Shown here: piece after piece, positions 17,648 to 55,066 of the stretch
How the letters are laid out: each line of letters begins with the position of its first letter
Position numbering within the stretch: the first letter of the stretch is position 1
Assembly (NCBI GenBank): GCA_964016885.1
Contig: OZ024751.1
Location: 19,034,001-19,098,000 of the forward strand
Source: Eledone cirrhosa
Lineage: Eukaryota
Length of the DNA stretch: 64,000 nt
Direction of reading: 5' to 3'
Program-made: the position numbers and the translations under genes
The notes under the pieces: model-generated
What the model was told of the DNA's origin: nothing
The model's input: only the letters and a program-made list of their open reading frames with translations
The model's database searches: none

Positions 17648-17777
17648 AACGAAGGAAATATGGTAAGGAACCAGATGGACCATAACGCACCAAAGTACTC
17701 AATACTTAGGGTAGTAGAGTGGGTAATAGGAACGAGTAAGACCCCGACGGCTGAGCTCAAGCCGTTTCGACGGCTAT
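17648..17777 (-). mobile_element. TA-anchored short element, family B (probable Penelope-like 3' end) with the 3' half of a hammerhead
   Basis: Homologous to copies at 23655, 28126, 41291 and 54875. Minus strand reads GAAA-CGGCTTGAGCTCAGCCG-TC-GGGGTC...CCTTCGTTA then (TA)n. Confidence 0.7.
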
Positions 17778-18611
17778 TCATTTCATTTATTGATTTATTG
17801 ATAATTTATCTGAGTGGCCCGAATCTTCCATATCGAACTTTTCGGTTATTTGGTTGATTGTAGACATATTCTACGTGTGACGGTATTTTAACGATAGTTA
17901 TAGCTCTAATTTATTTGAATTATAGAGCCCTCTGCCGATCATCTCGAATTTTGTTTATCGTGAACTCGTGCGCCGATTTTTCGATACTCGATTATTCTAC
18001 TATATTTAGCTCTAGACTTAGCTATTGACCAGTTAATTTTATTGTTCATTTTTTGTCGATTCTATTAAATGATGAATAGCCCCTGTTTATTTTAACATGT
18101 CTATTGAGCACTCTTATTCGATATGTGTTTTTGTCACATTTTTCCGAATATTTTTGCGGATATAAAGGTTATCTCCCTTGCTGAAATCCATGTGCGTATT
18201 TTTAGCCTGGGTCTTATCTTTTTATCCATTCGGACGAAGCTCGTTGATGAAGTAACTCCAGTCCCCCGATTATCTGTAAGGCTTATATTTTTATATGAGC
18301 TGATAGATGACGGTTTAAGGATTTACAGAAACCCAAGAAGCTAGATATTCCATCTCTCTAGTGGGTCCGGGTATGCATTTTACATTCATTTCATTTATTG
18401 ATTTATTGATAATTTATCTGAGTGGCCCGAATCTTCCATATCGAACTTTTCGGTTATTTGGTTGATTGTAGACATATTCTACGTGTGACGGTATTTTAAC
18501 GATAGTTATAGCTCTAATTTATTTGAATTATAGAGCCCTCTGCCGATCATCTCGAATTTTGTTTATCGTGAACTCGTGCGCCGATTTTTCGATACTCGAT
18601 TATTCTACTAT
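17777..18611. repeat. Identical direct repeat of about 227 bp (17777-18003 and 18386-18611) around about 380 bp of unique sequence
   Basis: TTCATTTCATTTATTG...CGATTATTCTACTATAT occurs twice. Confidence 0.9.
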
Positions 18612-19026
18612 ATATATATATATATATATATATATATATATATATATATATATATATATATATACAGATCGCGAAAACAAACCTACAATTCCCCTCGAAG
18701 GCGTTTTTCTGACTAACATCCTCACACTAAACATACATTGACGGATTTGACCATCCCGATGTAGCTACTCGCGTTGTACAATACATCGAGGTTTAAAGGA
18801 TGCTAAATATCCAGCCATTTTGTTTTTTGAAAGACGGTACTGTATTGATTGTTAGAGAGAGATGTGATAGAGTGGGGTGAACTAGAGAGAGGGAGGGGGT
18901 GGGAACTGATCACTATGTAGATTAAGCTAAACTCAGTTCACGAAAGGATTTCAGTGTCTAAACATACTTTTTTTTTTATTTAGAGTAATTTGAACATTTA
19001 AGGGGTGCAATTTGAAAATAATGATA

Positions 19027-19160
19027 ATGTGGACATCCATGAGCTTGGCTGGTCACGCTTGGGGATCCAGCCGGATAAGTTGGTAACGATTGCTTCTGAC
19101 AGGACACGATGGAAGGAGTGTTTGAGGACTCTGTCCCCACGACCCCCGACCCCCTGAAAA
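19027..19160 (+). mobile_element. RTE-clade LINE 3' fragment
   Basis: Translates to DIHELGWSRLGIQPDKLVTIASDRTRWKECLRTLSPRPP, which resembles the RTE C-terminus (LAW.RLGI....L..VA.DR..W...L..LPPRP). Confidence 0.7.
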
Positions 19161-19457
19161 AGAAGAAAAATGTCCGTGTGTGCAAACTCCACAAAACATT
19201 ATCAAATACAGTAATGTTGTTAAACAAACAGTGTCTTGAGTATCACTGAAATCGATATTATGTGAAGAAGAAGAAGAAGAAGAAGAAGAAGAAGAAGAAG
19301 AAGAAGAAGAAGAAGAAGAAGAAGAAGAAGAAGAAGAAGATGGAACAAGGGGCAGCAATTTGATGATTTGGGGTGGAATGCCGATGGTACCGACTCCAAT
19401 ACTGATAACAGAATGTGGACGGAACTTGTCATTTAACTTTCTCATTAGTGGTGATTA

Positions 19458-19865
19458 GGGAGATGGATTTGTAATATCAGTAGAGCGTTGGACTAGGCAT
19501 GTCAAACATGCGGCCCGTGGGCTGCATATGGCTCTTTACAAGCACACCTACGCCCCACACAAAGGTTTTTACAGTGCGAGGATTTTTAATCTTCGGAATA
19601 TAACATTTAAAAAAATTAGTTGTAATGTGAGCAATTAGTTGTCATGTGTCAGGTGGCCCTCAGGTGGCCCTCAGGTGGCCCTCAGTTTGACATGCCTGCG
19701 TTGGACAACATTTTTCAGGCAAAGTTACAACCCTTTATATTCTGAGCTTTGCCTTTCATCTTTACGAAGTCGATAAAATAAAGTACTAGTAACACACAGG
19801 AGCCGATTTAATCAACTTTCTCTCTTCTCTGAATATTGCTTTCCTTGTTCCAAAAGTAGAAGCAA
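19458..19865 (+). mobile_element. Degenerate family A SINE interrupted by a hAT MITE
   Basis: The head lies before 19493. GCCTTTCATC...GTCGATAAAATAAAGTAC and the CCAAAAGTAGAAG tail lie after 19706. Confidence 0.7.
19494..19698. mobile_element. hAT (Charlie-like) MITE
   Basis: TIRs TAGGCATGTCAAAC / GTTTGACATGCCTG, with an 8-bp target site duplication CGTTGGAC at 19486-19493 and 19699-19706. Confidence 0.85.
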
Positions 19866-51955: not shown

Positions 51956-54548
51956 GGGCTGGACTAATCTTCTTTCTGCTGTTGTTATTGCTCTTCATGT
52001 TCATGATGATGATGATGATAACGATGATGATGATGATAATGTCTATGTTATTGCAGTCGTTGTTGTTGAATGATGATGATGAAGACCAATAACGATGATG
52101 ATGGTGGTGGTGGTGGTGGTGGTGCTGGTGGTGGTTATGGCGGTGACGATAACGATGATGGGGGGGGCTATGATGATGATGATAGTGATGGTGATGCCAA
52201 TAAGGGTGATTATGATGATGATGATGATGACTATAACGATGATGATGGTGGTGGTGGTTATGGTGGTGACGATAACGATGATGGCCATGGTTTGGGGGGG
52301 GGGGCTACGTTGATGATGATGATGATGACTATAACGATGATAATATTCATGTTATTGCTGATGTTATTGCTGTAGTCGTTGTTGTTGTGGTCGTCGTTGT
52401 CGTTGTTTTTCTAGCACCATTTAAGACACCAAACGATCAGGTCCATTGCTTGTGTCAACGTCATTGATGTGACACCGGGATCAACCCTGATGGAGCAGCA
52501 GCCATTTTCCTCATGCATCATTGCAGCTATGGTGTAACATCCGGTCAGCCATGATCAGGCAGACATATTGTACTTCCCGCTGAAGTTGAGTTGTGACACA
52601 GACGTAGTTCACAACTATTTCCATTCAGCGTTCTTCTTTGAGATTTCTTTCATATATATTTTTTATTTAAAAAAAAAAAAAAAAAAAGCCGCCATTGTTG
52701 TTGTCATCATCATCATCATCATCATCATCATCATCATCGTTCTCATCATCATCATCATCATCATATCATCGTCATCATCGGCAGCAGCAGCAGTAGCAGC
52801 AGTATTATAATCATCATCATCACAATCATCATCATCATCATCATCGTCATCGCCACCACCATCATCATAGTCAACATCATCACAATCATCATGATAATTA
52901 TCATCATTATCAACATCATCATTATCATCATCATCATTGTCAACATCAACATAATTTTCATCATCATCGTCATCATTGTCATCATCATCGTAACCATAAT
53001 CATCATCACCGCTGTCATCGTTTGTCGCCATCGATGAACGCTAGCGTCACTGTACACACACAAACACAAACACACAGGCAAACATTTGCACATACACACA
53101 CATATACACACCGACACACATAGACATACACATACACACATACACACACATACACACACATATACACACCGACACACATACACATACACATACACACAAA
53201 CACACACATACACACACATATACACACCGACACACAGACATACACATACACACAAACACACACATGCACACACATATACACACAGACACACATACACATA
53301 CACATACACACAAACACACACATACACTCCCAAACACGTCAACATCCGTCTGGAAGATAATTCAAAGTCAATAAATAAATAAATAAAAATTATAAGCCAA
53401 TTAAATCAAACAAAAAAAGAAATGTCGTCTAAAAGAGACTGCCCCATATATATATATATATATATATATATATATATATATATATGGGTGGGTGTGTGTA
53501 TGTATGAATATATATATATATGTGTGTGTGTGAGTGGGTGTGTTTGTGTACATACATACATACATACATACATACATACATACACACACACATACATAAA
53601 TACATACATACATGCATGCATGCATGCATACATACATACATACATACATACATACATACATACATACATACATACATACATACATACATACACGGTTACT
53701 GATGCTCCACGCCCGTGCTATGTGAAGTGTGTCGGCGACAGAGAGACAGGGACGGGGGCGGAGATAGAAAAGAAAGAAAGAAAGAAAGAAAGAAAGAAAG
53801 AAAGAAAGAAAGAAAGAAAGAAAGAAAGAAAGAAAGAAAGAAAGAAAGAAAGAAAGAAAGAAAGAAAAGACAGACAGAAAAGAAAGAAAAGAAAGAGGGA
53901 AAGCGAGAGAATTGGGGAGACATTGTTCACTTGAAATGGCGGCTTGTGTTTTGGTGACCATGTGTTGCAAAATTGTGAGCTGTAAGTTGAATGCAAATAA
54001 CGAAACGGCTTTGAAAGGCAAACAATTGTAGGATGGGATAGCAATGAATCCATGCCAACTAGAGTATTGTTTGTGGATGACAAGGAATGTCCTAATATTA
54101 CAGTCTTATTATAGTATACAAGAGTCTATCACTCTCTCTCTTTCTCTCTCTTTCTCTCTCTGTCTGTCTGTCTGTCTCTCTCTCTCTCTCTTTCTTTCTC
54201 TATGTCTCTCTCTCTTTGACTCTTTCTTTCTCTCTGTTCTCGCTCTGTCTCGCTCTGTCTCGCTCTGTCTCGTTCTGTCTCTCTCTAACCACACACTCAC
54301 TCACCTTATTCATACATGCATATATATATATTCTTATATATATATATATATATATGGGGGGGGGTGCCCTTCCCAAAATAAACTAAAATTAAGAGAAAGA
54401 GAAATCACACACGCACACAACACACAAATATATATATATGTATATATGTATATATATATATATATATATATATATATATATATATATATATATGTGTGTG
54501 TGTGTGTGTGTGTGTGTGTGTGTGTGTGTGTGTGTACATACATATATA

Positions 54549-54720
54549 GGGGGGGGGTGCTGAAACGTTCCTGAGTTTAGGCAAAAGAAAATACAGTTAT
54601 TTATGATTTTATTCAACAGATTCACATATTGTCGCGATCCTACCTCCACTGTAAAAGTATCGCAAAAGCTTACCCTTTTGCGATACCTTTAAACCCAGGA
54701 ACTTTTCAGCGCCCCCTCGG
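54549..54720. mobile_element. Tc1/mariner MITE
   Basis: TIRs GGGGGTGCTGAAACGTTCCTG / CAGGAACTTTTCAGCGCCCCC with TA flanks; internal hairpin GTATCGCAAAAG/CTTTTGCGATAC. Confidence 0.75.
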
Positions 54721-54757
54721 ATATATATATATATATATATATATATATATATATAAA

Positions 54758-54860
54758 GTAATAATAGTAAATTTGAAGACTAAAATCCAAAGAGGGCTCG
54801 ATAAGGATAAATATATATCAAATATATAAGAACCCTAGAGCAAATATTTATTAAAATAAT
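54758..54860 (-). mobile_element. Family C element fragment
   Basis: GAAGACTAAAATCCAAAGAGGGCTCGATAAGG...GAACCCTAGAGC. Confidence 0.7.
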
Positions 54861-54874
54861 ATATATATCAGATA

Positions 54875-55066
54875 GGGTGTGCCAAAAACCAGGTGGACCA
54901 AAACCTGCCAGAGTACTCGATACTTGGGGTAGTAGAGTGGGTAATATGAAAAGATTCAGGACCCCGACGGCTAAGCTCCGGCCGTTTCGACAGCTAGATC
55001 CGAACTCGGAGTTCCGATCTAGCTGTCGAAACGGCCGGAGCTCAGCCGTCGGGGTCCTGAATCTTT
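54875..55066. mobile_element. Family B element with fold-back inverted repeat
   Basis: Palindrome 54950-55066, each arm carrying GAAA-CGGCCGGAGCT(C/T)AGCCG-TC-GGGGTC. Confidence 0.75.

Follow-up and report, generated by a model that had tools for sequence, protein, structure and literature searches.

Why do five short repeats in one stretch of Eledone cirrhosa DNA all break off inside a hammerhead ribozyme? The stretch (i.e. the window) comprises 64,000 nt of contig OZ024751.1, positions 19,034,001 to 19,098,000, and its repeats had been attributed in an initial annotation to stalling of reverse transcriptase (RT) in the ribozyme fold. Comparison with the 3.0-Gb genome indicates that the five copies are stubs of a Penelope-like retrotransposon that is abundant and carries motifs of the Hydra clade. 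These short terminal-repeat insertions were probably each formed from two complementary DNAs (cDNAs) that started at two fixed internal sites and likely ran off the capped 5' end of an RNA, located inside stem II of the hammerhead. Positions are numbered from the A of a TTAGT motif in stem II (+1), placing GAAA at +19 to +22 and GUC at +39 to +41; the sense strand of the element is the minus strand of the window.

Copies were present at 17648, 23655, 28126, 41291 and 54875, as annotated, with 84-96% identity to the 17648 copy (E-values of 1e-27 or better). The shared minus-strand end CCTTCGTT occurs in four of them, the 54875 copy being without it; three of these four abut a TA run and the remaining one, at 23655, lies ~11 nt from such a run. 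Palindromes were confirmed at 23733-23868 and ~54950-55066. The CUGANGA half of the ribozyme was found in 0/5 window copies.

A query with the 41291 copy matched longer relatives, one of which reaches, via a ~0.8-kb 3' untranslated region (UTR), the end of an endonuclease open reading frame (ORF). The window repeat lies downstream of this ORF end in 27/30 loci found with it, and 3' UTR sequence precedes 30/30 ORF-leading repeats, i.e. pseudo-long terminal repeats (pseudo-LTRs) from tandem or partial-tandem copies. One subfamily has tandem arrays with a 3.54-kb period and an open 719-aa RT/GIY-YIG ORF, and is therefore considered young. The encoded protein contains YRDD and VIY..YIG motifs, RWR at 37, DKT at 117, CxCx5C at 572, CxxC at 670 and CxH at 698. 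It had 2018 homologues (E<=1e-20) in a scored set of 7998, the top match carrying PF01541; Pfam gave no match to the 719-aa protein and, on four ORF fragments, GIY-YIG in one only (E=0.012). The tail of the family is 78 nt, and a TA run directly follows 105 of the 122 intact 3' ends in the sample described below, consistent with insertion into (TA)n. A single ORF with RT and C-terminal GIY-YIG, pseudo-LTRs and an inverted 5'-truncated partner with an optional tail are the features of EN+ Penelope-like elements (PLEs); the suspected Penelope-like origin and the anticipated linkage to an RT/GIY-YIG ORF were thus both borne out. Tandem arrays of the coding unit were located at C1:91473162-91493813 and C1:437200226-437210969, the former (the 91.47 Mb array) having a partner arm in inverted orientation and one or more open 719-aa ORFs. 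At C2:356030076-356032020, seven copies of the repeat-plus-ORF-start region with a 299-bp period were observed, possibly a short tandem retrozyme-like derivative. Non-LTR retrozymes are defined by non-coding tandem monomers with a complete hammerhead in each; the stubs are dispersed, inverted and devoid of CUGANGA and the tandem unit codes for protein, and this classification was rejected.

The structure of the insertions was examined in 120 stretches of 10 kb chosen by position, plus the window (1.264 Mb in total). Two classes of 3' end predominated among the 162 arms found, with 58 at +61 (short arm) and 66 at +139/140 (tail arm). The 58 head-to-head pairs consisted of 54 short-plus-tail, one tail-plus-tail, no short-plus-short and three incomplete or other combinations, such that 54/55 classifiable pairs joined one short to one tail arm (p=3e-15); long two-armed insertions obey the same rule. 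Junctions fell at 45 distinct coordinates in these 58 pairs and each palindrome was therefore built anew. With such varied junctions and asymmetric arms, the family lacks the fixed terminal inverted repeats and uniform interior of a miniature inverted-repeat transposable element (MITE), and a DNA transposon was rejected; target duplications are unreadable within TA runs. In the window, the arms are disposed as follows.

17648..17778, minus strand: tail arm of the PLE terminal repeat without a partner, +9 to +139; its 3' end enters the TA tract
23655..23786, minus strand: tail arm of the 23655 copy (subfamily B1), +8 to +139
23787..23803, no strand: 17-nt junction spacer of the 23655 copy, a duplicated piece of the start region; a G precedes -4 in both repeats
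23804..23868, plus strand: short arm of the 23655 copy, -4 to +61; ends in TA; its 5' reach exceeds that of the tail arm by 12 nt
28126..28222, minus strand: diverged tail arm of the 28126 copy, about +40/+45 to +139; reaches +40 allowing a 3-nt deletion
28223..28243, plus strand: remnant short arm of the 28126 copy; its first base is +40, the U of GUC, 2 nt 5' of the predicted cut
41291..41413, minus strand: unpaired tail arm of the 41291 copy, +17 to +139; TA-rich DNA on both sides
54887..55006, minus strand: tail arm of the 54875 copy (subfamily C, diverged), from +1 to about +120, without the tail end
55007..55009, no strand: 3-nt spacer CGG of the 54875 copy; each arm thereby has an untemplated G immediately 5' of +1, where the native base is T
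55010..55066, plus strand: short arm of the 54875 copy (subfamily C), +1 to about +57; ends in TA
60676..60711, plus strand: short stub, old and diverged, with 81% identity to the family across 36 nt, absent from the initial annotation

The 28126 copy folds back at GUC, as had been noted, with a centre at +40 that was refined to two bases 5' of the cut, and a cleaved RNA end was therefore not its template.

Differences in the reach of partner arms bear on how the second arm arises. The short arm reached further in 28 pairs, the tail arm in 14 and neither in 12, and in 5/8 long two-armed insertions the short arm carried 0.8-2.2 kb absent from the tail arm. As the short arm often extends beyond the tail arm, a tail-first fold-back cannot produce it and is largely refuted. 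Self-priming, which has been proposed for head-to-head Penelope palindromes (PMC3846280) and in which RT stalls in the ribozyme fold before the cDNA or an antisense template primes its own second arm, is likewise disfavoured for this family, since a copied arm cannot exceed its template. Partner arms do have a subfamily and some private variants in common, as such copying would predict, differing by <=2 of 29 diagnostic bases in 29/41 pairs (11% for non-partners); this similarity also fits one template per insertion, or subfamilies active at different times. Two head-to-head pairs (sampled loci L145:3516-3709 and L193:1-124) have arms that look like different subfamilies, a hint of two RNAs per insertion. 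No A-to-G polarity was observed between paired arms (G.T 53 versus A.C 45).

Arm 5' ends, set by strict extension as BLAST ends ran too far (to -7), were counted for 159 arms after omission of three at locus edges; nine arms mapping to +51, probably mapping artefacts, were retained in this denominator. Starts were clustered far above chance, because 118/159 fell in the 15 positions from -4 to +11, with a mode at +1 (25 arms), none in -10 to -5 and five further upstream, and the uniform spread of breakpoints that would have spoken against the initial interpretation was not observed. Position +46 was reached by 144 arms, +42 by 142, +23 by 134, +12 by 124, +8 by 114, +1 by 50 and -5 by 5. Of the 144, the cut site was thus crossed by 142, and 114 continued through stem III, GAAA and the proximal helix of stem II, the loss of arms being confined to +8 to -4. 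Reverse transcription hence proceeds through all of these elements, stem I included, and terminates close to +1. There was no peak of arm starts at the cut site in this sample, where 4/159 started at +39 to +43.

These counts speak against the idea that ribozyme structure halts RT. Its attraction is that junctions fall in a long, partly self-complementary stem II and that one window copy is centred beside GUC, but arm numbers fall little (144 to 114) across stem I, GUC, stem III and the most stable portion of stem II. The edge is moreover kept in subfamily C, which has a different stem II, and in B1, where a mismatched C3.A8 core was counted by hand in 75 of the first 100 long copies (the other 25 being U3-A8). 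Nor would stalling with self-priming account for the exact stop at +61 or for an untemplated G at the edge (see below), and on this evidence it is very improbable.

A second PLE family also argues against a stall at the ribozyme. This family has the same short-plus-tail head-to-head layout (window 4394-4462, minus strand; sampled loci L075, L079, L094:4066-4330 and L108:8877-9130), and its stubs mostly keep the whole hammerhead, starting about 4-10 nt before the core and, in the commonest variant, near a TCAGT motif. In this small sample (about six stubs) the edge appears to follow the initiator-like motif and not a ribozyme coordinate. Contigs of one public study showed loose ends and a depth step at +1 of the first family, the latter being confounded both by divergence among subfamilies and by a variable A-run immediately upstream; the second family, treated in the same way, showed no sharp edge.

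The bases at the junctions were then informative as to the nature of the edge. The native -1 base is T in 30/30 ORF-leading repeats. Junctions with both arms at +1 were found genome-wide at 1586 loci for subfamilies A/B and 73 for subfamily C, and spacer bases were scored in the first 50 of each set. One-base spacers were G:C in 21/23 cases for A/B (A:T in 2) and 29/32 for C (A:T in 3), while among longer spacers 14 placed G 5' of both arms and one placed C there; the 54875 copy of the window is a case of G on both arms. Untemplated 5' G residues of L1 insertions have been read as copies of the cap (PMC9341517), and transcription of D. virilis Penelope starts inside the pseudo-LTR (PMC2377424). 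The G spacers fit copying of an RNA cap, such that +1 would be a capped RNA polymerase II (Pol II) start, with a putative minor start at -4.

Alternative origins of this edge were weighed against the same evidence. Were the boundary a processed, uncapped RNA 5' end within stem II and the G a product of the terminal transferase activity of RT, the sharp edge and paired arms would be accounted for equally well, and the case for a cap at +1 comes from genomic sequence; against this, the +1 context TTAGT is kept in all subfamilies and a second pyrimidine-purine (YR) start is present at -4, making a processed end improbable. TTAGT is termed initiator-like by its agreement with the initiator consensus. 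The motif was also considered as a splice acceptor (TTTAG/T), which needs a conserved upstream exon; none was present in the spacers, which counts against this reading. Palindromes are unstable and long inverted insertions of the same family exist, as later collapse of long head-to-head insertions by central deletion would require, but collapse would not halt at one base, add G there or leave -5 to -10 empty. For spread of one hairpin master as a MITE a fixed centre is expected, at odds with the varied junctions and asymmetric arms, and either version of this alternative is scarcely credible.

A further possibility is that the stubs are a self-renewing population resembling short interspersed nuclear elements (SINEs), with +1 RNA produced from stubs by an internal promoter and not from coding elements. 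Stubs far outnumber long copies (5/159 arms were long locally) and no ORF-leading repeat starts at +1 (0/30). Conversely, many long copies exist in each subfamily tested (B1, 954 long versus 4985 exact arms; Y, 1867 versus 4325; counted at different stringencies), no stub-only lineage was seen among those subfamilies, and the lack of A-to-G polarity in pairs also counts against it. A SINE-like origin, which we regard as rather unlikely, alters the source of the RNA and not the run-off mechanism, and is compatible with two cDNAs running off a capped end.

Several observations weigh against run-off from a cap at +1. An exact +1 start was seen in only 25/159 arms, with 73 at +2 to +11; 43/159 arms are unpaired; and the 28:14 skew in arm reach is by itself weak (p=0.04). 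In multi-base A/B spacers, T at -1 (22) exceeds G (18), although this T may be native or added. Among the first 100 of 12,121 arms with non-T at -1, a hand count gave 48 C, 46 G and 6 A; in 30 arms fetched from this set, most C residues at -1 belong to the partner arm and three arms are long copies. A recurrent +1/+7 junction is not accounted for by cap copying. As +1 falls within the extended stem II, structure may contribute, and the putative start at +1 is read from genomic copies. Sampling was uneven, 100 of the 120 stretches (1.0 of 1.2 Mb) being from the window's own chromosome and 80 of these (0.8 Mb) directly adjoining the window. Finally, none of the 30 ORF-leading repeats fetched from 135 matches (22 independent loci) starts at +1, indicating that full-length copies do not derive from unit-length RNA capped at +1; coding copies must derive from longer or circular RNA, or the +1 RNA may come partly from stubs.

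The ribozyme itself was examined in long copies, which are predicted to fold into a type I hammerhead that is complete and has a long stem II. The three-way junction was obtained by unconstrained folding in 2/4 long copies and by constrained folding in 4/4. The full hammerhead anticipated from the half motifs is thus present, whereas CUGANGA is not its consensus, being in the minority relative to UUGANAA (U3-A8) or CUGAGAA: 39 distinct long copies comprised 37 U3-A8, one C3-G8 and one C3.A8. Interpretation of UUGANAA as a decayed core was rejected, as it represents a U3-A8 pair. The mismatched C3.A8 core of B1 argues that cleavage may not be essential. The presence of C3-G8, C3.A8 and U3-A8 cores in different subfamilies was observed, possibly a compensatory change caught at an intermediate state. 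A CTGANGA pattern search gave 319 matches versus 186 in the control, mostly chance, and 2/30 fetched loci belong to the family. The +1 position, downstream of that of CUGANGA, is on the distal 3' strand of stem II.

A scheme for these insertions can be proposed from the above. The family consists of the pseudo-LTR and tail of a 3.54-kb RT/GIY-YIG element inserting in (TA)n, and each insertion joins a +61-ending arm head to head with a +139-ending arm. In vitro, RT of PAc (i.e. Poseidon of Anolis carolinensis) starts at two internal sites and both strands are extended (Frangieh et al. 2024, PMC11167929); by analogy, both target strands would be nicked here and each would prime RT at one site. 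Arms end at +1 or slightly inside it, frequently with an additional G; +1 would be the Pol II start site and the G a copy of the cap. Joining of the two cDNA ends with small losses or additions would create a new imperfect palindrome each time. The predicted consequence is an RNA whose 5' repeat lacks CUGANGA and is unable to self-cleave, while its downstream repeat is complete. As a tentative extension, for which the odds are clearly against us at present, transcription start inside the hammerhead may act as a switch: the half ribozyme at the 5' end would keep the 5' priming sites and the whole 3' ribozyme would remove the 3' ones, so that such RNA would give only two-armed stubs. Removal of 3' priming sites would reconcile +1 stubs with the 0/30 ORF-leading starts at +1, coding copies arising from RNA of tandem arrays, either read-through or circular, with two RTs copying a single template in succession.

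Published proposals for PLE inverted repeats and optional tails include self-priming. If two cDNAs run off a capped end, tens of thousands of arms in this genome would record one priming site per arm and run-off to a constant end that carries an added G. Run-off predicts the transcription start with single-base precision; its placement within the ribozyme, if true, suggests a testable role for the hammerhead in these elements. A literature search by title or the start of the abstract, covering few subscription journals, found no report of cap-ended head-to-head Penelope stubs.

Other features of the window were also recorded. An Rfam scan had no hammerhead in its best 150 of 443 matches, these 150 being mostly TA-driven microRNA matches under gathering scores, and repeat finding was dominated by simple repeats; for annotation, hairpins of this family should be filed neither as MITEs nor as microRNA precursors. 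A near-perfect palindrome at 22781-23000, with ~80-nt arms around a central TA run, is unrelated to the family. Two near-perfect palindromes of 120-130 nt lie at 45661-45780 and 56071-56200, the former resembling a repeat beside several loci of the family (L002 and L029). Motifs resembling hammerhead cores at 3345, 23322, 43184, 45052 and 46294 (plus strand) and 60646 (minus strand) are probably fragments of further PLE families, chance matches being possible. A long tandem array with a 21-nt period (9+12) extends from about 12030 onward.

The insertion geometry is known for PLEs, and the family can be compared with several systems on the features set out in the cited sections. Like the Hydra clade of C-terminal EN+ PLEs (Craig et al. 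2021, PMC8557442), it has a single ORF with DKT, a CxCx5C linker plus, at the C terminus, GIY-YIG with CxxC and CxH, a hammerhead in the repeat and a (TA)n target; it differs in a unit of 3.54 kb, as opposed to 'generally <3 kb' (stated as a tendency), a tail of 78 nt as opposed to 30-40 bp and RWR in place of RWK, one conservative change. The assignment to this clade is by motifs, and the family may already be in the supplements of that paper. PAc similarly has two internal RT starts that define a tail, cutting and extension of both target strands and an AT-rich target, and hammerhead cleavage is not needed (PMC11167929). PAc belongs to another clade, however, and one site per arm, run-off to a capped end and a start inside the ribozyme do not appear in the main text of that study. 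Inverted pseudo-LTRs of Adineta vaga and D. virilis Penelope (PMC3846280, PMC2377424) share head-to-head repeats, palindromic junctions, an optional tail, a pseudo-LTR promoter with an initiator and partial tandems; whereas the former study invokes self-priming, arm asymmetry and the extra G point to two cDNAs here. The Cercyon hammerheads of Schistosoma (Cervera and de la Pena 2014, PMC4209133) likewise have a U3-A8 core in a PLE repeat and paired motifs on opposite strands, but the present family has a full-length stem III, a long, extended stem II and a mixture of C3-G8, C3.A8 and U3-A8 cores. Finally, as in full-length L1 (PMC9341517), one extra G is found 5' of a pyrimidine/purine start; unlike L1, the G here marks stubs of ~60 and ~140 nt primed near the RNA 5' end, often on both arms.

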